A stretch of 60,491 nt of DNA, the filler included, from Hausera hauseri (taxonomy: Eukaryota): assembly GCA_046269625.1 (NCBI GenBank). It is 11 parts of 11 records of this genome, joined end to end, with 100 filler letters (N's around TTAATTAATTAA, not from the genome) between each part and the next. Parts side by side here need not be neighbours in the genome. Positions count along the whole stretch, not along the records: positions 6,354 to 11,337 come from JBJURY010370704.1; 10 more parts are not named here. The stretch is one strand, 5' to 3'. Within the stretch, counting starts at the first letter, position 1. Every line of letters begins with the position of its first letter. The notes beneath the pieces are model-generated. The model saw nothing but the letters and a program-made list of their open reading frames with translations, made no database searches and was not told the origin of the DNA. A program made the position numbers and the translations under genes. This document shows positions 3,915-41,155 of this stretch, piece after piece.

Positions 3915-4870
3915 AATTTTCCAATTTGTTCAATAACTTTTTGTCAACTGTCTGGCAACTTCATGATTCCACGTTCATAAAACTTCTGATCCTTATCAAC
4001 AAAAGATTGAACCAAATGCGAATTTAGGTCATCATCATTAGTGTATATTTTACCATTCCATAAGTTTTACAAACTTCGAAATGAATGATAATCAGATGGC
4101 GCTGGATCAGGACACTATGGGGATGTAACATCGTTTCCCAATCTAGCTCCAATAATTTTACATGAGTTGTAAAGATGTATGAGGCCTCGCATTGTCTTGG
4201 TGGAACATGATTCCTTTGTGACTTGCCAAGTCTGGGCATTTCTCTTTGATTGCTTGCTCCAATTTCATTAATTGTTGACAATAAACATCTGAGTTTATCG
4301 TCTTGCTCTTTGGAAGTAGATCACAATACACAATACATTTGTAATTCCACCAAACTGACAGCATGATCTTTTTTGATACAATTCAGCTTTCAATGTGTTT
4401 TGTGCTGATTCATCACACTAGATCACGATCCGTTTTTCATCGACAGTGATGATTCACTTCAAAAAAGATCGCTACGTCAAATGGATCTCTTTGAAATTAT
4501 GCGGAATCCAAATGTCGAGCTTCTTAATAAATTCAATACATTTTAACTGATTTTCAATAGTTGTATGTGATACATATAACCTTTCTGCAATCTCTCGAAA
4601 AATTATTCAACGGTCTCTTTTAATCATAGCTCTGATTTGATCATCATCAACTTCAGTAGGTGGACCAGAACGTTGAACAACCTTGAGTGAGAAATCTCCA
4701 GACTGAAATATTTTATACCAATTTTGACACGGGCGTTTTGTTATACAATTAACACCATAAACGTCACATAGTCCATGTTTAAGTTGACGTTACACACAAT
4801 TTGTTTCTAACGTAAATTGCATTCTTTGAATAAATTGCATCATTTTGTTTTCTGTTCACATTTTAACTAC
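3915..4870 (-). mobile_element. Degenerate mariner transposase (mellifera-like)
   Basis: Motifs MLSVWWNYKCIVYCDLLP..TINSDVYCQQL, FHQDNARPH and GIMKLP..QKVIEQ, with multiple frameshifts. TIRs not identified. Confidence 0.85.
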
Positions 4871-5772
4871 TTCGTCTTTAGTACACTGTGAATGTTCCAC
4901 ATAACTTAAACCTACTCGATCAATAATCAGTCTCTAAGTGAGTCATTCATTAAATGTACACCGGCGACCGAATAGTTTTTGGTTTGAAGAACACCAATAG
5001 CACACAAGATGCAACATAGGGGAAGTAAACAAATTTTAGAATTGTGAAATACGTATCAAAAGTTTTACGTATGATGTTTATGCGGAAAGCAAAATGTGTA
5101 AGTGTTATATCTTTTTGGGTGATACTAAACAAGTACGTAAAAAATGTGGGGCATCTTTGTAATCCAATCTGTAATTGAGACAGTCAATGATGATACTGAT
5201 AACGGAGGAGGAAAACAATATGCCTTCAAGGTCACGATCAGTCATCTTGATGTACATCTTACATTGACTGGCTTGGCGAAGACATCTTATCCATGACTTA
5301 AAGTGGGTAATCGGTTCTCAGACTGTCTTATATTGTAAACATCTTTCTTGCGACTGCAATGTACCATTCATACTGTATGGTCGCAAAAATTTTACATACC
5401 GCTACTTCCTACATAAATGATTCCCACATAAAATTACGGTACAATAATTACCATTGTCAAGGTCAACAAATGTACATGACTAATGTCAGTCATGTGACTC
5501 ATTTTTATTCATTTGATATTGAAACAATTGTTGTCATATTAATTAAATTATTTTTATGAAATATTGTCGACTACAACTATAAATTTGTATCTGTTGTCAA
5601 TAACATCAATGAATTATACAAAGAGCATTGAATGAAAACATGATAAGGGACCATATAAATGGTGAAAATAAGTCAAAGCAACTGAAATATTGTCAAGTAA
5701 TTCATTATGAACAATCACTCATACAGTATGGTTACATAACAAACATTGTCATCATTCGAATGCCTTAACCAA

Positions 5773-6253
5773 TTAATTTAATCTGGGTACTTGGTAATAC
5801 CCCATATCATTTCTGTGGAATATCTGACATTCACCACTCGTTGCCTTAGCCATTTCAGCATCAAATGGCGTCATGGGGAACAGTCCCGATCCGAATAATT
5901 TTGCATAGGCTTCAGTCGAATAAACAAAATTGGATGCAGCAAATCTAACAATTAAATAACATTAATTAGGATATCTCATGTTAATAGGCACCCCCCACAT
6001 AATTTTATTATCACCTTTTGTGTAGTGGTGATTATTTTACGGTGGAATACATACGGTTTGTACCGCACCAGCATATTTTTTACCATAAAAAAAACAAAAT
6101 CCAACTCAACTCACTGTTTTCTCGTTTTCTCCAACTTTTCTATTTCTCGTCGCTCTTTTTTCTGTTTCATCCGTCGATTTTGAAACCAGATTTTAACCTG
6201 GCGCTCGGTAAGTAGCAACTGCTTCGACAATTCGGCCCTTCGTCCTCTGGCCA
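5773..6253 (-). CDS. Hox-class (ANTP/HOXL) homeobox gene, last two exons (5'-truncated by contig end)
   Basis: Exon 6253-6115 translates [40 protein letters not shown] (homeodomain helices 2-3). A GTGAGT donor at 6114 and a TAG acceptor at 5945 define a 170-nt phase-2 intron that joins in frame to exon 5944-5773, ending in TAA. Confidence 0.9.
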
Positions 6254-6353
6254 NNNNNNNNNNNNNNNNNNNNNNNNNNNNNNNNNNNNNNNNNNNNTTA
6301 ATTAATTAANNNNNNNNNNNNNNNNNNNNNNNNNNNNNNNNNNNNNNNNNNNN
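6254..6353. other. Artificial contig-joining spacer; also at 11338-11437, 16109-16208, 20665-20764, 26640-26739, 31145-31244, 36694-36793, 41425-41524, 45839-45938, 52659-52758
   Basis: Identical N44-TTAATTAATTAA-N44 linker with stops in all six frames, present ten times. Confidence 0.98.
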
Positions 6354-6625
6354 TTTTCATCTAATAATTTTATTTGTGGGTCAGTACTCTGGATTACATT
6401 GCTTAAATCTGTTTGTTTAGACAGGTTTTGTTTCGGCATAATTATCTCAACTGGTGGTTGTATATCTGCTCGAATGGTTTCATAAGGATAATAGTACATA
6501 AGTATTATGTATCTGTATGTCCGTCCGTAATTTAATTCGCAACATTTCTTGTAGATTCCATAATCAAATTCACAATCTTTTATTTTCTCGCTATTTTGAT
6601 CGGTAAATTTTATTCGAATTCTCAT
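6354..6625 (-). CDS. Cys-containing accessory ORF downstream of Gypsy pol (partial)
   Basis: Starts 4 nt after the pol stop (MRIRIKF..DCEFDYGIYKKCCELNY) and runs off the contig. May be a frameshifted continuation of the post-integrase extension. Confidence 0.4.
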
Positions 6626-6628
6626 ATA

Positions 6629-9600
6629 TTATCTAGTAGCCTTATTAGTCTTGAACCAGATACATGGTTTCTTCCAGTCTGCGTCGTAAGCTTTCATTGT
6701 TTTAAGGTTTTCTACGTCTTTTCTTCCTTCCATAAGTCGTTGATCTTCCTTGATTTTTGCTTCTCCTGCATTCTTTTTGATTCCGTATACATCTGCTAAA
6801 CTAGATTCATCGTGCCACCATTGAGTCTTAGTCTTTGGAATATAAGAGGCGATTAATGATAATGCTAAAATTATCTGTACATTGGATACTGGTCTATTAA
6901 CTATAGCAGAGGTTTTTATTTTCTTATTTTGACTCGGGTTTAAATTCTGATCCTTAGATCGTAAATTATAATGCTTATTTGGTTTTATTTCTGTTTTGAC
7001 AACTCTCTGTATGGATACTACTTCTTCTTTTCCGCTTTTATTGATATATACGGTAGTTGGTGTAGTTCGGACAACCTCGTAGGGTCCTCTTCCAGTGCGA
7101 GTAAGTTTCAGGGACGTACCTTTCTTTGCTACTGGGTAGTGTACGTAAACCCAATCTCCTTTTTCTAAATCATGAGGTTTGGCTTTCTTATCATATTGTT
7201 TCTTGAACTGTTCTTGATATTCGAGGGTTAGTGTTTTCGCTATATCCCAGCACTTTTGTAATCTTGTTTGTAAAACTTCCGCGAAGTTAGGTTCTAAATC
7301 TTCCGGGTTTGCCTGATACGGAGTCATTCCTATGTCCGTAGGTAATATTGCTTCGCGTCCGTACATCATAAAGAATGGCGTAAATCCTGTGGCTGGGTGT
7401 GGGGTTGTATTGATAGCAAATTGCGTTCCTTCTAGGAATTCATCCCAATCCTTTTGATCCTTTGCGACCACTGTCGATAAGACTCGTATAACGGTTGCGT
7501 TCATACGTTCGACCATTCCGTTACATTGAGGGTGATATGCGGTCGTAGTTAATCGTTCGATTTCGAAAATTTTAGTAATCTTATCAAATAACTCGCTCGT
7601 AAAGTTTCTTCCTCGGTCAGTCAAGATTTGATCGGGAGGTCCATATCTGCAAATGATTTTTCTTACTACTGCATCTGCTAGAGTTTCTGCTTTCTGATCA
7701 ACTAGTGCTACTAATTCAACGAAATGTGTTAATCGATCTACACACGTCAAGATATATTTGTTGTTTTTATGGGTTGTAGGTAGTGGTCCTACTATATCCA
7801 TGGACATAGCCTGCATAGGCCTATCTGGCACGTTGATTGGTTTTAATTCGGCTATATAATTTTTCACTTTCTTTTGTTTCGTTGCACAAACTTCACATGC
7901 ATCTATCCAGTTTTTCACGCCGATATAGATACTAGGCCAATAATATTTATTCAATATTCTCTCCAATGTCTTTTTCCATGACATGTGTCCAGCTAAGTAA
8001 GAATCGTGTTCAGCCATTAATACTTCTGTTCGTAATCCTTTCGGAATGACTACAAGTTTCCGTCCTTTTCGTTCGTAATACAAAATATTATCTTGGTCTG
8101 ATGCATAGTATTTGTGTCCGTGCCTTTGTAGATGTTTCTTCAGCTGGCGTCCTTTTGGCTTTTCGTCTTGTTCGGCAAATTTGACTATCTGTTGAATAAC
8201 TTTATCTTTGGCTTGTTCTGAAGATATTTTGATCGTTTTATTCAGTGTCAAGGTACGCTGTCGTTCCACCAATTCTTCAAGTTGAGCTTTCTTCATTGTC
8301 GTAATAGTGCTTGTTTTTGTCTTAAGCCTTGATAAAGCATCTGCGTCAATATGCTTACTTCCGGGCTTATATTGAAATTCGATGTTGTACCGTGATATTT
8401 CTTCGATCCAACGGTTTAGTCTACACGTTGGGTTATTAGCTCGTCCTTTCAACGTTGTGACAGCCTTGTGATCGGTTACTATAATAATTTTCTGTCCGTA
8501 GACGTATACGTTGAAGTGTCTTAAGGCTTCTTTCACAGCTAATGTTTCTAGTTCGGTAACTGAATAGTTTTTCTCTGCTTTCTTAAGTGATCGTCCCCCG
8601 TATGCAATTGGATGTTCTAATTCTTCATCTTCTCGTTTTTGGGCCAATTCGTAGCCGATTCCTTCTTTGCTTGCGTCTGTTTTAATTATAAATGGTAAGT
8701 TGAAATCGGGATATCTTAATACTGGCTCGCTTGTTAAAATTTTCTTCATTTCATCGAATGCCTTTTGTTCCACATCGGTCCATTTCCATTTAATTCCCTT
8801 TTTTAATAATCGGTATAATGGCGCATTAATTTTCGAATTGTCCGGTACATAGGTGGCGTAATATCCGCATAATCCTAGCCAGTGTCTCAGTTCTTTCTGA
8901 TTTTGAGGCTCCATACAGTCCGATATTTTATTTAATAGAGATTTATCTGGTTTCGATCCTCCTTCTCCGACTATATGTCCGAGGTAAGATACGGCATTTT
9001 GTGCCCATTTACATTTCTTAGGATTTAATTTCAACCCCGCTTGCTCTAGTCGCATAAGAGTGTCTTCAATATCTTTTACATGTTCCTCTTCAGTTTTCGA
9101 CGCTATCATTACGTCATCTAAATACGCGAATGCGTGATCAAGTCCCATTAACATTTTATTCATCATCCTGGTAAATATAGCTGGGCCGGTTGTTATGCCA
9201 AATGGCATGACATTAAATTCATAGACTCCATCATGTGTTTTAAACGCTGTTTTATAACGATCATCTTCTTCGATTTCTACCTGCCAATAACCGGATTGTA
9301 AGTCCAGTGTGGTAAACCATCTTGCTCCTGACAGTCTATCTAATGCTTCCTTCACAGATGGTAGTGGAAATGAATCTTTCATCATCAGAGTATTTAGGGC
9401 TCTATAATCTATGCAAAATCGGTGTTTGGTAGTATCTTTCTTTTTAACCATCAATATGGGTGAATACCATGACCGGTAACTTGGCCGTATTATGTCGGCC
9501 TTCAGCATACGTTCTACTTCGGCAGTAATCTCCGGTCTTAATGAATGAGGTGGCGGGTACCATTTAGGCATTTTCTGTTCCTCTAAATCAATTTCCTCAT

Positions 9601-9907
9601 TGGAGCCAGGTTTCTTTTTTAGCGGTATTGTTAATCTCAGAGCCTTTGCTCGGCCTATGTCTTCTTCATTTTGGGCAATAATCGACTTGTATTTGCACAA
9701 AAGTTCGTAAAATTGACAATATACTTCTGGCGAAAATTTAGTTTCAACGTGAGGTGGAAATTCAGCATATTTGTATGGTTTCTCTTCGATCGTTATTGCT
9801 GATACTTTATAAGTGTGGCCCAATGTGGTATTGGCGTACAACTTTATGGGGGTCGGCGCATTATTTACCAACCTAATAGGGACTCGTCCTGTTGTTACTC
9901 TTGTCAA
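6629..9907 (-). CDS. pol: Ty3/Gypsy Pol (RT-RNaseH-integrase-GPY/F) with C-terminal hydrophobic extension; family A copy 1
   Basis: RT: RFCIDYRALN, LDLQSGYWQ, YLDD. RNaseH: TDAS..ELE..TDH. Integrase: HHCC (H..H..CEVC), DDE (SMDIVG, LTDRG, MVERMN), GPY. Uninterrupted 1092-aa ORF. Confidence 0.97.
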   Translation of the reverse strand: MTRVTTGRVPIRLVNNAPTPIKLYANTTLGHTYKVSAITIEEKPYKYAEFPPHVETKFSPEVYCQFYELLCKYKSIIAQNEEDIGRAKALRLTIPLKKKPGSNEEIDLEEQKMPKWYPPPHSLRPEITAEVERMLKADIIRPSYRSWYSPILMVKKKDTTKHRFCIDYRALNTLMMKDSFPLPSVKEALDRLSGARWFTTLDLQSGYWQVEIEEDDRYKTAFKTHDGVYEFNVMPFGITTGPAIFTRMMNKMLMGLDHAFAYLDDVMIASKTEEEHVKDIEDTLMRLEQAGLKLNPKKCKWAQNAVSYLGHIVGEGGSKPDKSLLNKISDCMEPQNQKELRHWLGLCGYYATYVPDNSKINAPLYRLLKKGIKWKWTDVEQKAFDEMKKILTSEPVLRYPDFNLPFIIKTDASKEGIGYELAQKREDEELEHPIAYGGRSLKKAEKNYSVTELETLAVKEALRHFNVYVYGQKIIIVTDHKAVTTLKGRANNPTCRLNRWIEEISRYNIEFQYKPGSKHIDADALSRLKTKTSTITTMKKAQLEELVERQRTLTLNKTIKISSEQAKDKVIQQIVKFAEQDEKPKGRQLKKHLQRHGHKYYASDQDNILYYERKGRKLVVIPKGLRTEVLMAEHDSYLAGHMSWKKTLERILNKYYWPSIYIGVKNWIDACEVCATKQKKVKNYIAELKPINVPDRPMQAMSMDIVGPLPTTHKNNKYILTCVDRLTHFVELVALVDQKAETLADAVVRKIICRYGPPDQILTDRGRNFTSELFDKITKIFEIERLTTTAYHPQCNGMVERMNATVIRVLSTVVAKDQKDWDEFLEGTQFAINTTPHPATGFTPFFMMYGREAILPTDIGMTPYQANPEDLEPNFAEVLQTRLQKCWDIAKTLTLEYQEQFKKQYDKKAKPHDLEKGDWVYVHYPVAKKGTSLKLTRTGRGPYEVVRTTPTTVYINKSGKEEVVSIQRVVKTEIKPNKHYNLRSKDQNLNPSQNKKIKTSAIVNRPVSNVQIILALSLIASYIPKTKTQWWHDESSLADVYGIKKNAGEAKIKEDQRLMEGRKDVENLKTMKAYDADWKKPCIWFKTNKATR

Positions 9908-11337
9908 AATATTACTGAGGATAATATTTGGATTAATGTCTTCTTGTGGCTCAAAAATACCGGTTGTTCGTCCTCTTCTAGAATTTGAGCGTAAATTAAC
10001 ATTTCAGTTCGCGGAGGTATGTTTTCGTCAACGGGAATCCATACTTCTCCTAATTTCCTTTCTTTCATTGTTTTAACTCCTTTTGCTGGTCCAAGTTCAA
10101 TCAATTTTCCAGTCTGTAAATTTATTGCAATGCTGGGTAGCTGTTTCAATATATCACAGCCTAATACTACATAATCGGTTAGCTGATCCATTATAGCAAA
10201 CTCGTGCTTAAGGGTTTGATCCATTAGATGAACTATGGGACTCCATTTAAATTTTGGCTTGGATTCTTGTCCGAAAGCTCCTATACTACTTGGATCTGAT
10301 GAGGATGCTGGTTGCAACTGTTTTCGTAATGTCGGCGGTATTGATTCTAGCTTGATAAATGATTTTTCCGAGCCTGTGTCCACTAAGGCATAAACTTCCC
10401 AGTCCTCAATGGTAACTTTTGTAAAGGGTCTTCCTTCCACAACTGTCCCGTAACAATTTGATACAGCTTTGGGGCGTCTAATCGTAGAAATCTTATGTCC
10501 GTTTATCGTTATTTCTGGTGATGAGACAATATTTTCGGTTAATTGCTTCAGTTCCTCGTTTGGGTATAAGTCGTTACTTACTATGGCGTTTTCATTGTTC
10601 CTGATTAATGGTTCTTGAATTCTTGAGTTTGGAAACGATCTCACTTGAGTTTCCCAGATCGTCGATTTGGATTTTATATTGCGAGGTATTCTTGATGAAT
10701 ATATTATTCCATGATCATCTTCTGCTCGTCGTTGGTTAGTAATTTGCATTTTCTTTAATACTCCATATTGTTTTGTTCCTTCATAAGGGTCTTCGAAACG
10801 GAAGGGTTCTTGGCAGAAGGCTGATCTATAAGACATAGTAGAAAATTTGTCACAATCTTCGTATATTGGGGCCGTCGGTGGCATGATAGGTATTGGTGCT
10901 GAGTACATTTTGTATCTATTTTGTAAAGGAAGCGCTTCTCCTCCCTCAGGCTCGTCATCATCTGAGCCATTTCTTCTAATTATCGTTTTCTTAGTTTTAC
11001 GTTTTGATAGAAAGAAAGGTCTTGACCGGCGTTTGTAATTGTGGTAGCCAACATGTCGTTCTACATCATTTTTCCATCGGTTTTCTTCGTAGGCCTTAAG
11101 CATTTTACCGAAGGGTGTGATAATTGCAGTTAAAATTTTGCAAGAAAATCCTGTTAGCGTAAATATTTCGTATCCATTTATAATCGCCTGAATTACGGCC
11201 TTTACTAATTGCACCATAAAATAGATTGCTAAGAATCCCGATGCGGCTTGTCCGAAAATTAAAAATCTTCCCCAAATTTTGTAGAGTATTTCCGTAGTTA
11301 CTCGTTGATAGTGATTTACTCCTAACAATGATTCCCA
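9904..11337 (-). CDS. Chuvirus-like glycoprotein C-terminus (TM) fused in frame to linker and retropepsin protease (5'-truncated)
   Basis: WGRFLIFGQAASGFLAIYFMVQLVKAVIQAIINGYEIF aligns with the C-terminus of the glycoprotein at 25145-25417. The same ORF contains the aspartic protease motif ALVDTGSEKSFI..VVLGCDIL. A 1-nt shift in a T-run near 9955 separates it from RT. Confidence 0.85.
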   Translation of the reverse strand, partial: WESLLGVNHYQRVTTEILYKIWGRFLIFGQAASGFLAIYFMVQLVKAVIQAIINGYEIFTLTGFSCKILTAIITPFGKMLKAYEENRWKNDVERHVGYHNYKRRSRPFFLSKRKTKKTIIRRNGSDDDEPEGGEALPLQNRYKMYSAPIPIMPPTAPIYEDCDKFSTMSYRSAFCQEPFRFEDPYEGTKQYGVLKKMQITNQRRAEDDHGIIYSSRIPRNIKSKSTIWETQVRSFPNSRIQEPLIRNNENAIVSNDLYPNEELKQLTENIVSSPEITINGHKISTIRRPKAVSNCYGTVVEGRPFTKVTIEDWEVYALVDTGSEKSFIKLESIPPTLRKQLQPASSSDPSSIGAFGQESKPKFKWSPIVHLMDQTLKHEFAIMDQLTDYVVLGCDILKQLPSIAINLQTGKLIELGPAKGVKTMKERKLGEVWIPVDENIPPRTEMLIYAQILEEDEQPVFLSHKKTLIQILSSVIF

Positions 11338-11437: not shown

Positions 11438-11960
11438 GAATTAAGTTTCCATTTCTACAAAATTCAAATTCATCCACAGTTAATATGAGTTGATTTAGCT
11501 TCTGGATAATGATTTCCTCAATAACGTCTGACAGACTAACGAATGCTGTTAATCTCTGTGGTGAACTTAACCATCAAAACATACGTTTTTGTACGGCTAC
11601 ACAAGCCTACTGCAATTATTTCAAAGCCATTGTATTCACAAAAGATTTTAGTTTGGTGCGCTATTTCTTCGCATGGAATTGTTGGGCCTATTTTTATAGA
11701 TGAACATTTAAATTCACAACATTATCACGATTTGATTTCAACTCCTAATTGTTGTTTGTTTGTCAAGATAATAAATTAAATTTTGACATCCAAAATTTCC
11801 AACAAAACGGAGCTACATGCCACACCACGGTGGCTGACTGGTATTTTTTAAATCATCGTTTTAATAATTGTGTAATTTGAAACAAAACTGATTTCAATTA
11901 CCCGCCTTGATCAGCAGACTTGTCCTTTGATAATTTCTTTTTGTAGGGTTTCCTGAAGGA
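11438..11960 (+). pseudogene. Tc1/mariner-superfamily (rosa/DD41D-like) transposase fragment
   Basis: PLYSQKILVWCAISSHGIVGPIFID, FQQNGATCHT and degenerate YPP*SADL..FFL*GFLK motifs. Confidence 0.75.
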
Positions 11961-12285
11961 AAGAAGTAAAAGGAAGTGAGGACACTGGGCCAAACCTCCA
12001 GGGAGAAAAATTGATGTGGTTCGCGGATGAGTCATAAGGTAGAGAAAAAATACACACATACACGTTTAATAGAGCGTAGATGGGAGGTACACAGTTACGA
12101 AAGTGATACACACAAGAAAGCATACTGTATGGATTTGTAGTGGATAAAAAATTAAATTTCGCGCTAGCAAAAGAAAATATTGTTTAAATTTCGCGGTAAA
12201 AAATTTTGTTTAAATTTTTCTTTTAATATTGGTGGTTGAGTATAAATATAGGTGTGCAAATAACTTGACACTGTTTTAGCAAATA

Positions 12286-13572
12286 TTAGGTTGGCAACTA
12301 AGTAACTGCCGATTTAACACATAAATATCTGTGACTATCTTTTTTAAAGACTTCTGTCAATGTTATGATATTTTCCTTCTGACAATTGTTAGCCGTGACT
12401 CTTACCCTGCATTACAATCAAATTTGGCATATTTTTGTTTAAATTTGTCAACTTGGTGTCAATTTTAATATGGAGTGCAGAAACGAGCATTTTTGCCAAA
12501 TTTTACATTTTTATTTCCATAAAGGAAAGAACGCAGCGTAAGCAGCTAAAAGGTTATGTGATGTGTATGGTAAGGAAGCCTTAAAAGAAAGACAGTGCCG
12601 AAATTGGTTTAACAAATTTTGTTCTGGAGATTTTTCTCTCAAAGATGACCAACGTTCAGGTCGACCAGTTGAGCTTGATGATGACCGAATCAAAGTTATA
12701 ATCGAGTCGGATCGTCGTGGGACTGTGCGAGAGATTGCAGAGAGGTTGAATGTATCACATACATCGATTGAGAAACATTTAAAACATCTTCAACTCGCTA
12801 AAAAGCTTGATATGTGGATTCCACATGAATTGAAAGAAATTCATTTAACGAAGCGCATCAACGCTTGCGATTTGCATCTTAAACGAAATGAAGTCGATCC
12901 TTTTTTGAAACGAATTATCACTGACGGTGAAAAATGGATTGTTTGCGATAACGTCAATCGAAAAAAATCATGGTCCAGGCGTGATGAGCCACCGCAAACC
13001 ACTTCGAAAGCTGATATCCACCAAAAGAAGATTTTGTTGTAAATTTGGTAGGATTGGAAAGATGTGGTGTATTTTGAGCTGTTTCCAAGGAACCAAACGA
13101 TCGATACAAATATGTACTGTCAACAACTGGACAAATTAAATGCAGCGATCAACGAAAAACGGCCAGAAATTGTCAATCGCAAAGGTGTCACTTTCCATCA
13201 GGATAATGCTAGACCACACGTATCTTTGGTTACTCATCAAAAATTGATAGACCTTGATTACGAATTGATGTTACATCCACTATATAGTCCTGATCTAGCA
13301 CCATCATGTTACTATTTATTCCGATCTTTGCATAATTTCTTGAATGATAAAACTTTTGATAATTAGGACGCTGTGAAATCGCACTTGGTTCAGTTTTTTG
13401 CTGATAACGACCAGAAGTTCAACGAGTGTGGAATCATGAAGTTGCCAGAAAGATGGCAAAAGGTCATCGAACAAAATGGAACATATATCGTTGATTATGT
13501 TTCATTGCAAATATAAAAATAAAATCTTTTGTTTGTATGAAAAAATTGGCAATTACTTAGTTGCCAACCTAA
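12286..13572 (+). mobile_element. Full-length (1287 bp) mariner, mellifera subfamily, inactivated transposase
   Basis: About 30-bp TIRs (TTAGGTTGGCAACTAAGTAACTGCCGATTT / AAATTGGCAATTACTTAGTTGCCAACCTAA) with TA on the left. Motifs WIPHEL, FHQDNARPH, HPLYSPDLAPS, with in-frame stops. Confidence 0.95.
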
Positions 13573-16108
13573 CATATCTCGAGATCTCTTCAATCCATCT
13601 ATTCAACCTACACGTAGGGTTCTTTGCTCGTCCCTTTAAAGTTGTAACTGCCTTGTGATCGGTAACTATTATTATCTTCTGTCCATATACGTAAACGTTA
13701 AAATGCCTTAAGGCTTCCTTTACTGCTAACGTTTCTAGTTTTGTCACTGAATAGTTTTTCTCTGCTTTCTTCAGGGAGCGTCCTCCATAAGCGATTGGGT
13801 GTTCTAGTTTTTCATCTTTGCGTTTCTGTGCCAATTCATATCCGATACCTTCTTTACTTGCGTCTGTTTTAATAATAAACGGTAAGCTAAAGTCAGGATA
13901 TCTCAGTACCGGTTCGCTAGTTAGTATCTTCTTCATTTCGTCGAACGCCTTTTGTTCAATCTCGGTCCATCTCCATTTCATTTCCTTTTTTAGTAATCGG
14001 TATAACGGTGCATTAATGTTTGAGTTATCTGGTACGTAAGTGGCATAATAACCACATAGACCTAACCAATGTCTTCGTTCCTTTTTGTTCTGAGGTTCCA
14101 TACAGTCTGAAATTTTATTCAGTAATGATTTGTCAGGCTTAGATCCTCCTTCGCCAACTGTATGGCCAAGATATGACACGGCGTTTTGGGCCCATTTGTA
14201 TTTTTTGGGTATAGTTTTAACCCAGCTTGTTCTAATCTCATAAGAGTGTCCTCAATATCCTTCAGATGCTCCTTTTCGTCTTTTGATGCAATCATTACGT
14301 CATCGAAGTACGCAAATGCATAGCTGGTCCAGTGGTAATTCTAAACGGCATAACGTTAAATTCGTATACGCCATCATGAGTTTTAAACGCAGTTTTATAA
14401 CGATCTTCGTCTTCAATCTCTACTTGCCAATACCCGGATTGTAAGTCCAGAGTAGTAAACTATTTTACTCCTGAGAGTCTGTCCAAAGCTTCTTTTACAG
14501 GTGGTAGGAGAAAAATCCTTCATCATAAGAATATTCAACGCTCTATAATTGATACAAGATCGATGTTTCGTGGTTTCTTTCTTCTTGACCATTAGAATAG
14601 GTGAATACCAAGATCTGAAACTTGGTCAAATTATATCGGCCTTTAACATACGTTCTACCCCTTTAGTTATTTCCGGTCTTAGGGAATGCGGCGGCGGATA
14701 CCATTTTGGCAATTTCTGTTCCTCGAGATCGATTTCATCATTAGATCCGGGCTTTTTCTTAAGTGGTATAGTTAATTTTAACGTCTTTGCTCGGCCAATG
14801 TCTTCTTCGTCTTTTGCAATAATTGACTTATAGCGACATAATAGTTCGTAAAACTGGCAATAAGCTTCTGGCGAAAACTTCGTATCGACGTGTGGTGGAA
14901 ATTCGGCGTACATATACAGTTCCTATTCAACCGTTATTGCTGATGCTTTGTAAGTATGTCCTAGAGTAGTGTTAGCATATAATTTTACTGGAGTTTGAGC
15001 ATTATTCACTATTTTTACCGGTATTCGACCTGATGCTACTCGGGTCAATATTTTGCTCAGTATTATATTCGGGTTTAGCGTTTTTTTGGCTCGAAATATA
15101 CTGGTAAATCTTCGTCTTGACAGATTTGTGCAAAGATCAATAATTTCGTTCTAGGCGGAATGTTTTCGTTGACTGGAATCAAGACTTTTCCGGATTCTCT
15201 TTATTTACCTTAGTTCCTTTTATCGGTCCGAGCTCGATTAGCTTCGAGGTATTCAGATCTATCGCGACGTTTGGCAGACGTCTTAATACATCATATCCTA
15301 ATACTACGTCGTCTGTTAAGTGTTCCATTATAGAAAATTCATGTTGAAATGTCTGTCCCATTATTTTAAGAGTAGGATTCTACTCGAATTTCGGTCTTGA
15401 TTCTTGTCCGAAAGCTCCTATACTTCCGGGATCGGTTGTAAGTGGTAGTCGTAATTGATTGCGCAACGTTTTCGGTATCGATACGTCTTTTATGAATGAT
15501 TTCTCTGATCCGGTATCTACTAATGCGTATACTTCCCAATCGTCAATAAACAATTTGGCGAAGGGTCTACCTTCTTTTATCTTAGGTTGTTTAACGACTA
15601 ATATTTTGTACCCGTTCACGCTAATTTCTGGTGATTTATTCTGGGCTACTTGTCTTAATTTTTCAATGGGATACAATCCATTATTTACACTGTTTTCGTT
15701 GTTTCTATCCGGCGTATTGATTAGCGGTTCTTGGTTGTTTTGGTTATGGAAGGATTGCATTCGTGGATTATCCCATATTAATGATTCAGTTTCTATATTC
15801 CGCGAAATCCTTGGAAAGTATGTTACCTTGCGATCATCTGCCGGTTGGCGGCATAATTCGGATTTTTCCCTGGTTCGGTACATTTTCCGTAACACGCCGT
15901 ATTGTTTTGTCCCTTCATAGGGATCTTCATAACTGAAAGGCTTTCGATATATTTCCGAACTATAGGAGTTAATAGATCTCTTATCGCTGTCTACATATTG
16001 TCGTGCCAAAGGGGGTAGCATCTGTAAAGGCGGCCTAAGCGCCTTCCGATTGCTTATCTTGGAGACCGCGTCTCCTCCCTTAGGCTCATCATCATCCGAA
16101 TCGTTTTT
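13573..16108 (-). pseudogene. Gypsy family A copy 2: linker-protease-RT-RNaseH, frameshifted, cut by the mariner
   Basis: Near-identical peptides to 6629-11337 (ALVDTGSEKSFI, KWYPPPHSLRPEI, TDASKEGIG). Homology stops at EEISRY, at the mariner TIR. Confidence 0.93.
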
Positions 16109-18330: not shown

Positions 18331-19880
18331 ACTCTTGAAGTAATGATTAAACGTTTGTCGTTATATTTGAAGAATGTAGCCGCTGATGCTTATAACGAGC
18401 TTCCTAACGATGAAAAGAAATCTTGGTCATCCTTGGTAGGAGGATTGAACCGAAAATTATTGCCGACAGTAACATCGCAACAGAACTTATGGCATTTAGA
18501 AATAGGGTGAAACAGAAGGGTGAATAGATAACACAGTTTGCATTTGCATTAAAGAAACTAGCTAATGGTTATATGAGCACCTTGAGAATAGCTAATGTAG
18601 CAAAAACTAAAACCGAAGCTGAACGCGAACTCGCAGAAAAAGCAACTCCGTCAGATTTTGACATCATGATGGCGACGCATTTAATTAATGGTATTTGGTC
18701 CCGAGATTTAGTGAAACAGTTGATTTTGGCCAGACCTGAGAATTTTGAAAGGACTTTACAACTGCCCCAAGACTTAGAAATGGCACTTGATAGATATGAC
18801 AGACATAATGATAGAAATGATAGAAATAATAATCGAAATGGTCGTAACGATAAAAATCGCAATGATAATCGCGGAAGACATGATACACGATTTAAAAGTA
18901 ATAGAAATGATGAAAATAAAAACAGTAATAACGACTATGGGAATAGTCGAAACAATAATTATGTTATCGATCGAAATATGAATAAGTTGAATCCCAATTC
19001 GGATAGAAATCGAGGAAACTACAAAGGTTCTAATTATCAAAATCGTTACGATGATAATCAAAATAATGATAGTCGACGAAATATAGATAGTACGCAAAGT
19101 TTGCCGAACCGGTACAATAGAAGCACAAATATGTCTAAGTCACCTATTAATGAAGGCGGTAGACAGAGAGTCAACAGAAATGGAAATTTAGTTTGTTTCA
19201 CTTGCAGTAAGAAGGACATATTGCAATGTCATGTCCAAACCCGCGTAGCCTAATAAGACTAGTATGATCAACGTTAACGAGAACTTAGAAGCGAAATATG
19301 GTGTTCATGGAGATACAGGTACTATTATCGACATACACGATTTGCGAAAATTTCTAGACGCTTAGCCTGAGACTACTAATCCACAAATTCTGATGGCCAG
19401 AAGAGAGTACGGAGATAAACTAAGATTATTAGAGGTCTACCACGGTTTAGCCGAACCAGAAACAGAATACGAGCATGCTATAGCACCCAAGCTAATCGAT
19501 ATGACAGGGAAGAAGAGTATTCCAATAATTAATAAAACGGTAGAAAAACAAGGAACTTTGACATAAGTCGACTTAGATGCAGAGCCTGAGTTCACAATTG
19601 ATAAAGCAAAAGAGTATCGAAGACGATATAGCCAAAAAAGAATTTATGGAACCATTAATACTTAAAATTACGAAAAGTAGAGGCCATAGCTCTTGACTTA
19701 AGTCGAAACGTAGAATTCTTTCATTATCTCAAGTAACTAAAGAAAAATTAGAAGAAGTAAAAGATATTAAAATCGCTGTAGAAAGAGACGCAAGACCTAG
19801 TTTAGACACACCACGAATTGGTTTAAACCCATCGAGTTGGACAAGACCGTAAAGTCGATTAACGAAATTAATGAGGACAA
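18328..19880 (+). pseudogene. gag: Gypsy gag fragment (same family as 37665-39056)
   Basis: EVMIKRLSLYLKNVAADAYNEL..WSSL, an N/D/R-rich tract and the knuckle VCFTCSK.GH, colinear with the gag of contig 8. Confidence 0.88.
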
Positions 19881-20764: not shown

Positions 20765-23700
20765 ATGCCGTGTAATTCTTTACGTAACTTAGTAAGCAGT
20801 CGTATTTTTGTAATTCGAGATCCCTTTCTTAGTCACGCCAAGGGATTAACTGAATCCCTATTAAGTATTGTTTTGACAATGGTTTTGACACATAAAAGTT
20901 TACACATCTTGTAGGTAACATTAAATTTTATACTGCTCAATAAATAATCTTCGGCTATAGCTAAGGGTGTCGTATTTTAGCTTGCTGTATTTCTGTTTCT
21001 GTCATTTTGGTCAAAGCGCCTGGTGCTAGTATACAAATTAAAAGGAGAAAATACTTTATTAACCATAATATTTTGTTACTTGAGATCCTCGCAATTTTTT
21101 TCTCTACCATACTGCTAACATATCCCTGTTCATCATTCCTTAGTTTACTTTCTTTAGCCGCCGGTTTACATATATTAACATGAACTTTAAGTGTCGTATT
21201 ATTCTTTTTAAGGCTTATGTTGGGTACGTCTACCTTTTCCACTTCATACGGTCCTTTATATGGTCTATCTAGCTTTGATGTCTTGTCCTTTTGCTTAAGG
21301 GTGTGTATAACATCATTTTATCTCCTGGTTTTATTTTGGATTGCTTCGTTTTTTCACCATAATACTTCTTATGTTTTGTTTTATAATCTTTCTGATTATC
21401 CTTTACTATTTTGTAAGCTAACTGGAGTCTTTCTTGCATCAGTTGCTTGTACTCTTCTATTTCCATTAAATGAGAAGTAGGATTTACATTGAAATCCAAA
21501 TAAATTGGTAGTCTGGCATCTCTTAGATACATCAGGTAAAAAGGTGTCTCTTTTGTGGCTTCGTGTACTGACGTTCGGTTTACGAATACACAGGCACTGA
21601 TATATTTATCCTAGTCATCTTGTCTGGTATTGACAACTGTTTGTAGTTTACTTTTTAGGTCTCCAATATATCGTTCTACCATTCCGTTATTCTCAGGGTG
21701 TCCTGGTGTCGATCGTAATTTTAATATTCGCATAATGTCATAAATAGCTTGCATTACGTTTCCCGTCAAGTTTGATGCTTGATCCGTTAATAATATTCTT
21801 GGGTCTCCATAATTAAATATTATATTCTCCACGAATTTTTCGGCGATATTTCCCACCTTAATGTCCTGAATAGGTAATGCTACAACCCATCGTGTAAAAT
21901 AATCTAAAAATACTAGAATATATTTATTTTCGTTTGTAGTTAGTGGTAAGGGTCCGATTGTATCCATTGCTGTGAATTCGAAGGGGACTGGTGGGTTATC
22001 CCATACTTTTAAAGGGGCTTTGAATTTAGATCCGGTATTCTTTCGTGTGGCACATAGTTTACAGTTGTCACACCATTCCTGCGTATGTTTTATCATGGAT
22101 GGCCAAAAATATTTCCTTTTTAATTTATTAGTTGTCTTTCTTGATGATTGAAGCCGACCTAGTAGCCCGTCGTGATACTGTGTTAACAATATTGCTCTAT
22201 TTTTCTTGGAAATTACAAGGGCTAGTCCATTCTGATGAATGTAGTATAGAAATTCTTCTTTTTCTTCATATGCTTCGCCGAATCTGGCTAGGTGACGCGC
22301 AAGCCCTTTATCTGTAGGAATAATTCTGTTTTGCATAAAACTTCTGATAGCTTGTATCTCAATATCTTCCTCTTGATTTTCTTTTATCTTTTCTGGTGAT
22401 CCGTCCATACTCCATACTGCTGCTACTATAGCTTTATTCGTGTTTGATTTTTCTGGCATTCTCGATAGATAATCGGCATTCGCATTATGTGTTCCCGGTT
22501 TATATTGGAAATTTATAGTATATGGTTGCAATTTGAGAGCCCATCTTAATAATCGGCTATTTGGATTGTCGTGTTCTTTTAACCATTGCAATGGACGATG
22601 GTCAGTGTATATTACTAACGGTTTGTTTTCACTGATATAAGGTGAAAATATATTTAAAGCGAATATTACTGCAAATAATTCCTTTTCAATTGTTGCGTAT
22701 TTCTTTTGATGCTTGTTTAGCTTTTTCGATGCATATGCTACTGGATGTTCCTTTCCATCCTCGCATTTCTGTGATAATACTGCTCCCACTCCATAATCAC
22801 TTGCGTCTGTAGCTAATATGAATGGTTTATTCATGTCTGGATAAATTAGAATGGGGGCACTCAACAATTTTTCCTTAAGCATTTCAAATGAATTCTAACA
22901 TTCACTTGTCTATATTACCTGTTCTAAGTCTTTACAAAGTAGTTCATATAGCGGTTTGGCTATTTTACTGAAATCTTTAATAAATCTACGGTAATAATTT
23001 GCCAATCCTAAGAATCTTCGCAACTCTTTAACTGTAGTTGGCTTTGGGAAGTATTTAATTTTTGCAATTAATTTCTCTTGCGGCTTAACCCCATTTCTGT
23101 CTATCCTATGTCCCAGAAAGTTGACTTCTTGAGCAACTTAACATTTCTTGGGATTTATTTTGAGTCCCATTATTTCACATCTATCGAACAGATCCTGTAG
23201 ATCTTTTAGATGTTGTTCGAAATTTAAGGATGCAATTATTACGTCATCAATATATACCATCACATGTAATGCGTCCAGTAATAATAATTCAGTTCCTCTC
23301 TGAAACGTAGGTGGTCCGTTATTTAATCCGAAAGGCATTCTGTTAAACTCCCATAATTCTTCGCCTATGGAAAAAGCTGTCTTTTGTTTGTCTTCTTCCT
23401 TCACTTGTACTTGCCAATATTCTTTCTGTAAATAAATAATTGTAAATATTGTAGATCCATGTAATTTATCTAATATTTCATCTATGCTTGGTAACAGATA
23501 CGTGTCGGTTTCGGTAATTTCATTGAGAGCTCTATAGTCGATACAAAATCTCATTGCTCCACCTTTTTTCTTTACCATTACTACTGGGGCAGTCCATGGA
23601 GAACAGCTTGGTCGTATTATTTTATTATCGCTCATTTCTTTTATAATTTTCCGGGATTCTTCCTTCTTATCATACGCGAAGCGATAAGGCCGTTTCTTTT

Positions 23701-24829
23701 TTGGTTTATCTTGTCCGTTTTTTAGTTTAATAGAATGTTGTATAACATTCATAACTCCTAAGTCATAATCATTTTGTGCAAAGTGATCATTATTTTTTAT
23801 TAGGAGTTGTTGTAACTTAGTCTTTTCCTCGCCTGTCAAAACTTTACAGTCCTTTAGTTTCTCATCCCAATTGATAATACTAGTTTTACCTTTTGTCGCC
23901 CCTTTGTTCGTTGCGTTATTTAATTTAGCTTCCATCATTTTTTCAATTGTATCTACTTCTGAGATGACAGAATTAGTGCCTTCCCTAAAACTTTCTAGCG
24001 TATCTTCTGCTATTATTACACATCCCATTCTGGTATTCCTTCTTAGTTTCATTTCATTTCGTCCCGTGTTGCAAATCCGTAGATGGATTTTCCCGTTTCT
24101 TATTCTGTCTATATGAGGTGCTATGAGTATCTCATACTTTTCCATGGTTACTAGGGATGGTTCGAAGTATACGTTTTTACCAATAGATTTGCCTTCTATT
24201 TTTCCAGATACTACCATTTCAGAACGAGGTGGCATTACAATGTCCTTTGTCAATGACACTGCTCCATTATGCTGTTTCGTATTGAATCTTCTTATCTGAC
24301 CTGTACTTAAGTCGATGTAGGCATCTTCTAACTGATTCAGGACATCACATCCAATTAATATTTCATTTGTTAAACGTTTTGCCACAATTACAGTATGGTT
24401 AATTACTTGATTGCATATTTTAATTTTGGCATCGAGGACTGTCCTTATTTGTTCTTCAGTGCCAAATGCTGCGACGTTTATTAACGTCTCGGAAGGTTTT
24501 TTTAGTTTCTTTACTAATTCCGGGGGCAACTGGTTTCTTCCCATTATTGTGGTTGTAGATCCCGTGTTTATTAGAGCGATCATTGGGTACCCATTTATGT
24601 CAATCATTATTTCCGGCCTTGTTGATGACTGTTTTTCATAATCCTCACTTATTTTACAAGTGGTATCGCGATTATAGGGCATCGGGTTTTCGTCATAATT
24701 ATGTTTCATCCTTAATACTTGGTATATTGGGTACATTTCTTTCTGATCTGGAAGGTATTTTTGCTCTGGCGTTATTGATTCCATAAATCGGGGTGACGAT
24801 CCCGTATATTGGGGTGCTGTTGGAATCAT
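20765..24829 (-). pseudogene. pol: Gypsy family B pol (PR-RT-RNaseH-IN-GPY + hydrophobic extension) with nonsense mutations
   Basis: ALINTGS (protease, D>N), RFCIDYRALN, YIDD, ATDASDYG, AMDTIGPL, TDQA, MVERY. ORFs 23138-24829, 21611-22882 and 21269-21532 share one frame. Confidence 0.95.
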
Positions 24830-26639
24830 TACGGCTTGACAATTGTATTCATCGGCGAAATTTATTTTCGGTAATTGTGACAGTAATGTTTTCTTGTATT
24901 TTCGATTTCACGACGTCCATGAAACTCGCCTCAGTCTTTTTATATATTTATTGGTAGACTTACTTACATTTGGGGAAGTATTATTATTGTCATCCTCCTG
25001 TCCATTAAGCGTACTGTATGGTGAGTTATTCTCTAAATCTTTATTTTTGTCTTTGAGTATTCTTCTTTTTCATTTTGCGTCATGTCTTGCTAGAAAACAA
25101 CTATCTGCTGCTGGTATGAAGGCGATTAAACTTTTCCATGAGCATCAATCTGCTGCGTGGATCTCATAAGCTTTACTGAGAACTGTAAATATCGTTCGCA
25201 GTGTGCTAATTATGAAATATATAGCTAAAAATCCTGAGTCTCCTTTGCCAAAATATAAAAACTTTCCCCACATCTTTTCCACTACATTTCGAGTGACCTT
25301 TATAAGGTAATCTCGACCCATCAGATTTTCCCATTGTGGTGATCCTTCACCATCCCACATCACTTTTCTGGTTAATTCTGTTATTACTCGTTGTCGCTGT
25401 TGTGGAAATAACAGCATCCGTCTATATCTTCTAAATTCTGTTCGGTATAGATTTTTTCCTGGGGTATAACGGTAAGTGGTTCAAATTTATGATTTTTCTG
25501 TAAGTTTATTAAACTGAGTGTTTCGGGCGGTGTTACACGTTCCCGTTTCGGCATTCTTATCCATTGATCGTTTATCTTAAACATTGGCTACATATGTGCA
25601 ATTTATCAATAAGGTTGGCTTAACTTCAGCGTCTAAAAGAATTCTTGTTACTGGCATCACGTATCTTGGCTCGTTATTATAGTCCACCGGTAGTTCAGTC
25701 GTACATTCCGTAGTGGGTCTCAATTTAACTTCTACTTTCTTGCATTCTATTGTAATCAATACTTCACCCATAATCCTTCCAATTACTCCTTCGCCAAAGG
25801 GCATTACTGGTGCTACCATATCTGGATTAGTTATCACTACAGCCAGGTTATTCCTCATTATTTCGTAATTCAGCTTGCATTCGTTCATTATTATTTCTCT
25901 GTATAAACTTCTGATCTCTGTTCTTATCTAATTGATTAAGAAATCAATTTTGTTATCAAAATACTGCGTTAACTTTATATCCCTTTTATCTAATTTCATT
26001 CTGGCACCATGGATTTCTTTTAATGACAAATGTATGCCTTTGTAATTGGTTTTGGATATATCTTCATTACATTTTCTTATCGTTCCGGGAATTTTAAGTC
26101 ACATCATATCCTCAGGATTTTCTGAGTATAACACCGTAGCAACTTCCGTCATTCTTACGTCTTTTTGTCCTTCCTTAAAAGTAGCTGTTTCTTTTTCTGC
26201 TCTTTCCTACCGTTTTATTGAACTTTCCTTCTTTTAGTAACGTAAGATAGCATTTACCCATTGATACTTCCCACGTCATTTTAGATTCTCCGGTGTCGCA
26301 TTCGCCGTTTTCATACTCACATTCACTCATGGTAGTCATTATTTTGGTTTGGGAATCAAACAGTGCTTCATATTCTTTTAATTGGACTTGATAATCCTCA
26401 ATGGCAACTGTTCTTGGCGCGATAATACCTCCTACATCATAATTTATTCCAACATAATAGCCTTCACTAGATTTGTTAATCTTTCCAGCTATGAAAATTC
26501 GAGTGTATTTTATTTTATTCCGTACAGCTAGTATTTGAGCGTTTTGGACAGTGATCACTCCTATTTTAAATGCATCCTGACATTCAGCTCGTGAAATAAT
26601 TATCGGTTCGAACGGAGTTGTAGGCTCTACTATGGCAGA
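24830..26639 (-). pseudogene. env: Chuvirus/Jingchuvirales-type (class III, gB-like) fusion glycoprotein (env), upstream of protease
   Basis: Cys pattern and motifs typical of chuviral G: ISRAEC, CEYENGECDTGESKMTW, CKLNYEIMRNNLAVVITNPDMVA, GEVLITIECKKVEV..CTTELPV..PVTRIL, FKINDQW, IYT, LFPQQR, WGKFLYFG..GFLAIYF. Confidence 0.85.
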
Positions 26640-37664: not shown

Positions 37665-39056
37665 TTAGCTACTTTTTCGACTAAACTCAGGATCTGCGTC
37701 TAAGTCGACTGCCGACGGTTTATTGCTTATCGGAATACTCTTTTTCCGTGTCATATCACTCCGTTTCGGTGCTATCGCGTGTTCATATTCAGTTTCTGGT
37801 TCTGCTAAGCAATGGTACACTTCTAGTAATCTCAGTTTATCCCCGCATTCTCTTCTGGCCATCAGAATTTGTAGGTTAGTGGTATCCGGTTGAGCATCTA
37901 GGAATTTTCTCAAATCCTGTATATCGATGAGAGTGCTTGTATCTCCACAAATGCCATACTTTGCTTTTAAATTCTCATTGATTCTAATCATACTAATCTT
38001 ATTTGGCTTAGTAAATGAGACATTACGTGAGTTTGGGCATGACCTTGATATGTGTCCTTCTTTGCCGCAAGTAAAACAAACCAAATTGCCATTTCTGCCG
38101 ACTCGCTGTCGACCGTCTTCGTTCACTGTTGACTTAGATCTATTTGCACTCTTATTAAACTGGTTTCGCAAACTTTGCATACTATCGGCAGTTCGTTTAT
38201 TATCATTGCTTTGGTTATCACCGTTTTGATTCGAGTAGTTTGGACCCTTATAATTTCTTCTATTTCCATCCCAGTTTGATCTGTTCGTATTAGCATAATT
38301 ATTACCTCTGCCATTTCTGTAACCGCCATTATTATTTCGATTCCCATAATTTCTGTTACCTGCAAATCGTCCATCGTCTCTTTCACGATTATCATTGCGG
38401 TCATTCCGATCATTATTCCTGTCGTTTCTATCATTATGTCTGGCATATCTATCTAGCGCCATTTCTAAGTCTTGAGCTAGTTGTAACGTTCCTTCAAAAT
38501 TCTCAGGTCTAGCTAAAATCAACTGTTTAACTAAGTCTCGTGACCAAATACAATTTATTAGTTGCGTCGTCATCATCACATCTAAATCTGGTGGTGAAGC
38601 CTTCTCTGGGGCGTCACGTTCTGCGTCCGATTTAGCTTTAGCTATGTTGGCTATACGCAATGTGTTTATATAACTGTTAGCGAGTTTCTTCAACGCAAAT
38701 GCGAATTGGGTTACTGATTCACCTTTTTGCTGTACTCTATTCTGAAATGCCATAAGCTTTTGCTGCGGCGTAACTGTTGGCAGTAATTTGCAATTTAATG
38801 CTCCTACCAGGGAGGACCAAGATTTCTTCTCGTCATTAGTGAGCTCACTATAAGTGTCAGCGGCTAAGTTTTTCAAATATAACGACAATCGTTTTATCAT
38901 TACTTCAGGAGTGAGGCTGGCACCTTCTGCGTGCAATTTATAAGTTCTCAAGAATTCATTAAGCCCGTCTAGGTCTTCATCATATGCTGGCAGGTTTAGA
39001 GAGTCAAAGGTAAAGATGTCCAGTTTCTGTGCTACTGGTGGATTATCAGTTGCCAT
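37665..39056 (-). CDS. gag: Gypsy-type Gag (capsid region, N/D/R-rich tract, CCHC knuckle)
   Basis: FQNRVQQKGESVTQFAFAL (MHR-like QxxxEsv) and CFTCGKEGHISRSC; lies downstream of an LTR and PBS. Confidence 0.92.
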   Translation of the reverse strand: MATDNPPVAQKLDIFTFDSLNLPAYDEDLDGLNEFLRTYKLHAEGASLTPEVMIKRLSLYLKNLAADTYSELTNDEKKSWSSLVGALNCKLLPTVTPQQKLMAFQNRVQQKGESVTQFAFALKKLANSYINTLRIANIAKAKSDAERDAPEKASPPDLDVMMTTQLINCIWSRDLVKQLILARPENFEGTLQLAQDLEMALDRYARHNDRNDRNNDRNDRNDNRERDDGRFAGNRNYGNRNNNGGYRNGRGNNYANTNRSNWDGNRRNYKGPNYSNQNGDNQSNDNKRTADSMQSLRNQFNKSANRSKSTVNEDGRQRVGRNGNLVCFTCGKEGHISRSCPNSRNVSFTKPNKISMIRINENLKAKYGICGDTSTLIDIQDLRKFLDAQPDTTNLQILMARRECGDKLRLLEVYHCLAEPETEYEHAIAPKRSDMTRKKSIPISNKPSAVDLDADPEFSRKSS

Positions 39057-39432
39057 TTTATTTACGTTATTTGGTTCTAAATTTGCTTTATTTGCTTTAG
39101 GTTTTTCGAGTGCTATTTTAAACTGTTTATTTTGTGCGAAAACGTCTTATTTAATCTTATTCTCGGAATTTGAAAGTTTATCTACCTTTTTTGTTTCTCT
39201 GTTTATATTTCTACGCGTTTCACGCATAGGTGAATTGTCTTTTAATATATGGTTTATTCCTGGCCTATCAATGTTTGTTCACAAGTTTTGTTTACTTATC
39301 CCCGTAAGAATAGCCTATATACCCAATTTAAATTTCCGATTTTGAAAAAATCAAATTACTCGATGTAATGGCGCTGTTCGCCGATGTGTAATTATTTAAC
39401 TCTGATACGTAAAGTTTAGCTAGGTACAGACT

Positions 39433-40102: not shown

Positions 40103-41155
40103 TTTCTCCTCCTTGAACGGCATCCTCGGATGTGCCTATTGCGTCAGGAGAGGTGCCGAGGCGACGGGGATTCCGCAACAATTCCATTCGTTGTCTTAGA
40201 CTGGGTCCAGAACTGGTACTAGGCTGTTCTTCTCTGGGATTAGGTTCCAATTCATAACTATGGTAGGGCTTAATTCTAACTATTCGGGTATGGCTACCGT
40301 TCGAATAGTACTTCAGATCAGCAGCTTCGGCTCGACATACTGGACATGTGGTCTTCCCATTATCCAGCGTCTATTTCTCCAGACAGTCTCTACAATATTT
40401 ATGTCGACAGTCGGGGTTATTTAGCACAACGTATCCTTGCTTCAGGTACGCCTCGCACACTGGACATTCGTCTTCTTCCTTTGCCCAATTCTCATCGTCC
40501 AGATCCACTCTCAACAGAATCTCAATAGGCTCTACTATCAACCCTTCTTCATCTTGGTATAAATAAGCGTATATCCTTTTTTGCTTCGGATTTATGGAAC
40601 TGTTCTTAGGATCACACCCAACGGCGATTAGGGTCAAATCGCTGAGAGTGTATCGATCTACATCCAGAACTTCACCAGTCGATTGGTATTTTTGATATTG
40701 TTTCTTTAACAGCAGCTTAAGTGATTTATCCACAGGAAATAATACTTTACCATTTTGTTTGTACTGAAATATTGGGGCAATATACTTTTCGATTTTGGGA
40801 TTTTCCCAGACATACGTGTTCGGGTAAACTTGTCTGGCAGGCAATAGTTTGACAAAAAACATCGCTTTTTTAATCTTCTGTTTACTATAGTATTTGTGGC
40901 TACTAACATCCTTGAGTAGTCTGCAGTTGTAGAATAATGGACATTTTCTGTGGATGTCTTCTTTCGTAAGACATTTATTTTGGTTATTTGTTCTTCCTGT
41001 TTTCTTTTTGGTTTTACTACGGTTTTTTCTATACGGGGCTGCATCCTTGGCCCTGCGGGTTTTGCGGTTGATCGTTCTGGTTTAAGGTCCTTTCTGCCCG
41101 TTTTGGGTTCCTCTTTCGATCTCCTTTCACCTCTCTTGCTTTTCTTCTTGAACAA
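40095..41155 (-). pseudogene. 3' accessory ORF of the LTR element with a C3HC4 RING finger
   Basis: CPVC-x15-CRHKYCRDCLEK*TLDNGKTTCPVCR. After the single TAG at 40371-40373 the frame stays open through the PPT and ends at TGA 40095-40097 inside the LTR. A Lys-rich upstream part is in another frame. Confidence 0.8.
40103..40114 (-). promoter_or_regulatory. Polypurine tract
   Basis: AAGGAGGAGAAA immediately before the LTR TG. Confidence 0.8.

Follow-up and report, generated by a model that had tools for sequence, protein, structure and literature searches.

Predicted ESCRT late-domain motifs in the Env tails of GAG-ENV-POL Ty3/gypsy elements with a gB-type glycoprotein

Whether env-carrying Ty3/gypsy elements outside flies exit their cells, and by which route, is a question addressed by short motifs in the Env tail of retroelement pieces from Hausera hauseri. 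The relevant passage of a 2012 review describes the use of ESCRT by errantiviruses as not known (PMC3383448). In the sections cited here, P(T/S)AP is described as binding Tsg101, YPx(n)L as binding ALIX and PPxY as binding Nedd4-type ligases, and these late-domain motifs function independently of position and are often paired (PMC7995964, PMC2651531, PMC3907061), one type replacing another in viruses (PMC7995964). Judging from sequence features, we give slightly better than even odds (roughly 0.55) to the reading that late domains in the Env tail recruit ALIX or Tsg101 for budding. Since the motifs can be named and lie in a defined tail, the question of exit becomes testable with peptides and inert reporters. 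Were the reading true, it would account for the way in which a virus-derived Env comes with its own exit signal, and for the viability of the GAG-ENV-POL order.

The window, that is, the whole analyzed stretch of 60,491 nucleotides (filler included), consists of 11 separate contigs of 4.3–7.7 kb each joined by spacers, and contains pieces of retroelements, DNA transposons, polymerase-B genes, and host genes. The motifs lie on the contigs of family A (6354-11337), copy 2 (11438-16108; 74% identical to A over 2 kb), and family B (20765-26639), all read on the minus strand. These are internal pieces of 4.7–5.9 kb that start inside Env or the linker, all three copies are broken and, as the contigs are separate, the three copies and the Gag pieces are not physically joined to one another. 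Only A among the window copies retains Env anchor, linker, and protease in a single unbroken frame, which spans 477 residues (9907..11337, minus strand), is open at the contig end, and runs from the Env C-terminus through the membrane anchor and the linker into the aspartic protease. Within this frame, the C-terminal part of a gB/chuvirus-type fusion glycoprotein (11074..11328, minus strand; PF24664, E 2.7e-15), including two helices that are moderately hydrophobic by hydropathy (about 11110-11274, minus strand), is separated by a linker of ~220 residues from a retropepsin-type protease domain (10138..10434, minus strand; PF00077, E 1.1e-07), placing a gB/Monjiviricetes-type Env directly upstream of Pol. 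The RT, RNase H, and integrase of A, with a hydrophobic C-terminal extension (6632..10003, minus strand), occupy a frame other than that of the protease, so this copy is broken there. The contig of copy 2, a diverged relative of A, begins within the linker and preserves linker and protease start (15383..16108, minus strand), with Pol in many pieces. In family B, Env is split over several frames (25148..26639, minus strand; PF24664 on the first piece), and stops lie between the Env pieces and the PTAP-bearing frame, which comprises the linker end, the protease, and the RT start (23141..24907, minus strand).

The Ty3/gypsy Pol order PR-RT-RNase H-IN is present in the window element, its RT being 40–50% identical to that of homologs. 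The homologs have the GAG-ENV-POL layout as one frame of 2,700–3,200 residues, and Gag was seen upstream of Env in the same element in P0067, P0017, P0066, and L002. Window pieces of Ty3/gypsy Gag with a zinc knuckle (37665-39146, minus strand, and 18528-19253, plus strand) match the Gag of GAG-ENV-POL homologs at 24–30%; the contig of the first also holds a RING-finger frame (40371-41081). By these predicted domains, the window pieces are of the known GAG-ENV-POL errantivirus layout, that is, Ty3/gypsy with a gB-type Env (PMC13524379). The parts of Chary and Hayashi's paper used here describe the same placement of Env between Gag and Pol, a class III (HSV/gB)-type Env, and PR-RT-RH-IN, in elements from Nematoda, Bryozoa, and Platyhelminthes; unlike those elements, the window copies are broken fragments (PMC13524379). 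Its main text contains none of the terms late domain, ESCRT, PTAP, Tsg101, cytoplasmic, or budding. Hence, the element type is known, and the tail motifs appear not to have been described so far. The papers listed by our literature searches include none that deals with late domains in tails of this kind; a mention may be present in Sacco et al. 2022, reportedly the first description of the nematode elements.

The preliminary description of this DNA had reported a PTAP in A and in B, LYPNEEL in A, and LYPIEKL in copy 2, in A and B linkers that could not otherwise be aligned, and these observations hold. The Tsg101-type PTAP motifs are at 10867..10878 (A) and 24812..24823 (B), the ALIX-type LYPx3L motif of A is at 10540..10569 (LYPNEELKQL, with LYPNEEL at 10549-10569 and a predicted short helix behind it), and LYPIEKL is at 15656-15676, all on the minus strand. 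Family B additionally bears a hydrophobic-Y-P motif upstream of the protease, MYPIYQVL (24713..24736, minus strand), which the earlier list lacked. The candidate late domains thus carry the consensus forms P(T/S)AP and (L)YPx(n)L. In A the motifs follow the two hydrophobic helices and are continuous with the protease; a single-sequence model of low confidence (mean pLDDT 44.5) renders this region as coil, apart from a short helix (residues 261-271) directly behind the LYP. The tail LYP may resemble the LYP in herpesvirus gB tails.

The A and B linkers align no better than chance (108 of 500 shuffles match the score). The alignment of A with copy 2, by contrast, is strong (0 of 500), and the motifs of these two are, by this homology, not independent. 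Copy 2 had been said to lack a clear PTAP, and the position aligned with that of A indeed reads PLAR (16001-16012, minus strand), which may represent decay or a PTAP-less subfamily. The RTs of A and B are 40% identical and not sisters in an RT tree that has little resolution (a star on 1 of 6 branches) and fits both retention and convergence of their PTAP, either of which may apply. A block common to A, B, and copy 2, YxVL(R/K)xM, looked suggestive and was discarded, the alignments with B being not above chance.

How readily could such matches arise in any proline-rich, disordered tail, or as a structural turn that binds no host partner? Across the six reading frames, the window contains no P[TS]AP other than the two PTAPs. 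When the residues of each linker are shuffled in 20,000 trials, P[TS]AP arises in 0.55% for A and 0.37% for B, and [LM]YPxxx[LI] in 0.56% for A and 0.74% for copy 2. Bare [LIVM]YP, in favor of chance, is common in shuffled window linkers (14–15%). Homologs were collected with phmmer, which gave 65 proteins; in nearly all of them it was the Env membrane region, not the motifs, that produced the match. Further searches added 6 proteins and 2 loci. The resulting 74 sequences, including A, show the Env anchor in 70: 18 homologs in which a protease follows it, 51 in which none does, some of which may be incomplete gene calls, and A itself. Named homologs include ant, wasp, and chuvirus glycoprotein sequences. 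Among the 18 Env-Pol linkers, [LIVM]YP is present in 11 (shuffle mean 1.1), PPxY in three, and P[TS]AP in two, both close relatives, while three have no late-domain motif. The preliminary description had made its reading depend on conservation in further families, and here the outcome divides: the hydrophobic-Y-P motif recurs, whereas for P[TS]AP the expected conservation did not appear. Protease-less tails of at least 15 residues (42) have P[TS]AP in six (0.25 expected) and [LIVM]YP in eight (0.82 expected), with PPxY not enriched (one, 0.67 expected).

We scanned 48 tails, chosen for similarity to the Env membrane region, blindly for 10,664 short patterns after dropping A, 7 close relatives, and 14 tails of fewer than 35 residues, using composition-preserving shuffles and a look-elsewhere control from 150 shuffles. 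YP.L ranked first (11 of 48 tails, 0.56 expected, score 10.6), followed by LYP (9, 0.61 expected, score 7.7), PTAP (4, 0.08 expected, score 5.8), and P.AP (10, 1.36 expected, score 5.7). The best score within a shuffle had a 95th percentile of 5.6 and a maximum of 6.5; YP.L and LYP exceed the best pattern from all 150 shuffles, which makes YPxL secure and leaves PTAP alone borderline. P[TS]AP in both forms occurs in 6 of 48 tails against 0.25 expected, patchily, and a strict late-domain pattern in just 17. The conserved element is hydrophobic-Y-P, and P(T/S)AP is sporadic. In the Env tree, which excludes family A because its piece is below the length cut, three deep branches bear the motifs, namely a chuvirus-like pair, the Env-Pol clade, and an arthropod-type clade. 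YPxL and LYP are, judging from the enrichment, conserved under selection across the relatives. The homologs are few and in part related to one another; the enrichment nonetheless persists after the composition-preserving shuffles, the removal of the close relatives, and the look-elsewhere control, so the blind scan largely refutes chance for YPxL, and we regard chance or a bare turn as very improbable for the motifs overall. We conclude that the tail motifs are real and non-random, and that they are predicted late domains on a known class of element. YPx(n)L, P(T/S)AP, and PPxY are all present and substitute for one another in homologs; both the short YPxL and the long LYPx3L form precede the protease. 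A proline-rich motif is present in 12 homolog tails, of which 8 also have a YP, and in these the proline-rich motif always comes first.

The YPxL motif also fits the tyrosine-based YxxPhi endocytosis signal, so it might serve trafficking, either as such a signal or through ESCRT sending Env to endosomes or lysosomes, which would keep the fusogen off the cell surface with no release of particles. In that direction, non-proline YxxPhi is enriched in the protease-less tails (18 vs 7.7 expected), pointing to ordinary sorting signals there, and the HSV gB tail is described as directing sorting to multivesicular bodies in the passage cited (PMC7995964). Plain endocytosis signals would not account for the proline at +1 in 18 of 48 YxxPhi sites (8.5% expected, p = 3e-8), nor for the hydrophobic residue before Tyr in 17 of 23 sites; moreover, the Env-Pol linkers show no enrichment of non-proline YxxPhi (19 vs 16.5), and LYPNEEL does not fit YxxPhi. 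We consider trafficking rather unlikely as the main role.

Alternatively, hydrophobic-Y-P could be an aromatic-proline cleavage site that frees the protease from Env or trims the tail, as in the MLV R peptide, with PTAP incidental. Cleavage between Y and P would place the catalytic Asp at position 30-32 in 4 of 18 linkers (P0006, P0026, P0067, P0068), giving a protease of usual retropepsin length; the motif also sits in the last part of the linker, and removal of an R peptide is documented in the portion cited (PMC3265304). Against a cleavage site, the distance from Y|P to Asp varies from 30 to 62 residues, with 62 in family A; the motif is rare elsewhere in the polyprotein, and it is found 9–27 residues from the end of nine tails that have no Pol. 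Phe, in addition, rarely replaces Tyr in the motif context: YPx[LIVM] accounts for 18 of 109 Tyr and FPx[LIVM] for only 1 of 56 Phe (p = 0.004), the in-context contrasts (p = 0.004–0.02) resting on patterns picked after inspection of the data, and the raw contrast of Y-P with F-P (23/111 vs 8/61, p = 0.30) being not significant. A cleavage site also leaves PT/SAP unexplained, including that in the tail of the chuvirus glycoprotein P0064. We judge it unlikely that cleavage is what the motif is for, and cleavage and late-domain roles could coexist.

Recruitment of ESCRT by the Env tail also agrees with where the motifs are found. For the 18 homologs, their density is 7.36 per 1000 residues in the linker (16 in 2,173), 0.15 on the Gag side (a single motif in 6,555 residues from the 12 of 18 homologs with such sequence, some partial), 0.12 in the ectodomain, and 0.75 on the Pol side, and the window Gag pieces, on other contigs, contain none of the three late-domain types save one LPxY. 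The earlier proposal that the signals reside in the Env-Pol linker rather than in Gag is thereby borne out with respect to Gag; with respect to the linker it is too narrow, since Env tails with no Pol behind them and a chuvirus glycoprotein tail carry the motifs too, which hence belong to the Env tail and not to the linker as such. Its overall interpretation is partly supported. A PTAP also occurs once inside an integrase (P0003), which indicates that PTAP can arise with no late-domain role.

On these grounds, the motifs that follow the Env anchor in GAG-ENV-POL Ty3/gypsy elements are likely to be late domains: YPxL or LYPx3L would recruit ALIX, and in some lineages PT/SAP would bring in Tsg101 or PPxY Nedd4-type ligases. 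The recruited machinery would pinch off enveloped particles or vesicles at the plasma membrane or the multivesicular body. The linker is presumably cytosolic, as the enzymes fused behind it (protease, RT, and integrase) have to be, and only one of the two hydrophobic helices should in that case cross the membrane. A membrane-spanning Env would tether Gag and Pol at the membrane, which is why the budding signal can sit on the Env tail, and the protease would free Pol later. As a broader and more tentative proposal, to which we assign somewhat less than even odds, class III (gB-type) Envs of invertebrate retrotransposons and chuviruses would bear natural, interchangeable ESCRT late domains in their tails; the GAG-ENV-POL polyprotein would anchor, bud, and later release capsid and enzymes, and Env, not Gag, would drive scission. 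In the experiments as cited, fitting a glycoprotein tail with an ESCRT motif can bring about the release of particles, and HIV p6 (PTAP plus LYPxnL) on such a tail gave little or no release (PMC10121106).

Known systems offer partial parallels. Foamy viruses have an Env unrelated to the gB type. According to the excerpt cited, that Env can itself release particles, with the late motif in Gag (PMC7828637). HIV-1 p6 (PTAP plus LYPxnL) and EIAV p9 (YPDL) are described as holding the same motif types in a disordered stretch just before the protease (PMC2651531, PMC3907061, PMC7995964), and the homolog P0010 carries YPDL, as EIAV p9 does. Retroviral late domains are in Gag, whereas the motifs predicted here, read from sequence only, follow the Env membrane anchor. 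As described in the passages cited, a budding signal outside Gag or matrix is found in bluetongue virus NS3 (PSAP, PPxY), which is non-structural (PMC7995964); a glycoprotein-tail motif, of another type and speculative, is proposed for hartmanivirus GP2 (PMC6261641); and the signal is on the glycoprotein tail in spike-EABR particles, which are artificial (PMC10121106). None of these three is a retrotransposon Env.

Variation within family A was assessed with run X1, in which 18,791 contigs lie on the A contig, mostly 80–95% alike, so A is part of a large, diverged family. In the stretch 10815-10935, which was centered on the PTAP and on which 59 X1 contigs at least 80% alike lie, the summed depth is 4,400–6,800 over 10850-10889, whereas positions before 10845 and after 10899 stay under 600, and loose ends mark either edge of this island. 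Excluding near-end variants, which are unlisted, four variants are listed in 10846-10899, all silent and at third positions, two of them within the PTAP, and a fifth just outside alters a residue. Cover in the bin of LYPNEEL is low (734 vs about 10,000 alongside), which indicates that this stretch varies between copies.

Among the searches beyond phmmer, a word-based one found no longer Env-linker relatives in 802 candidates, and scans of viral and genome contigs found no relatives; a metagenome scan gave the 2 loci noted above, and a chuvirus glycoprotein search one new protein, too few for a chuvirus-only test. No RNA run with the element was among the sequencing-run matches listed, PDB searches returned proteases only or no match, and Atlas leads scored below 0.9, three of the four among those listed being PF24664 clusters.

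Several other features of these elements and of the window deserve mention. A helix-like YxxL(R/K)xxL motif recurs near the ends of protease-less Env tails (P0023, P0032, P0034, P0056, and P0025), and Y.EL occurs in 5 of 48 tails against 0.56 expected; this motif may, we presume, be a non-canonical ALIX site. P0067, P0068, P0002, and P0003 encode, after the integrase and in the same frame, a membrane protein with two hydrophobic segments, and the related P0067 and P0068 have a PPxY directly behind its last membrane segment; a hydrophobic segment also follows the integrase in window A (about 6356-6900) and B (20960-21100), both on the minus strand. The polyproteins of P0066 (1172-1233, 2588-2695) and L002 (848-903) have extra domains: a Bcl-2-like match immediately ahead of Env, weak and short of the cut-off (E 0.0015), ankyrin repeats, and a ubiquitin-like match, also weak. 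In P0003, P0007, P0010, P0015, P0017, P0066, L001, and L002, Env is followed by at least two protease-like domains, and in family A a short stretch (10480-10525, minus strand) resembles, by eye, the first strand of the protease just before the real one. The P0002 polyprotein is filed under a Flavobacteriaceae MAG and most likely stems from a mis-binned eukaryotic contig. Three window contigs hold broken, Polinton-like pieces of protein-primed DNA polymerase B (PF03175; 16785-18306, 27138-29996, and 52805-56733), and the host-gene pieces on the minus strand (43206-44832 and 49459-50928) comprise MIF4G-like fragments of the cap-binding protein type, split over two long frames that overlap, and fragments of a plexin cytoplasmic domain.
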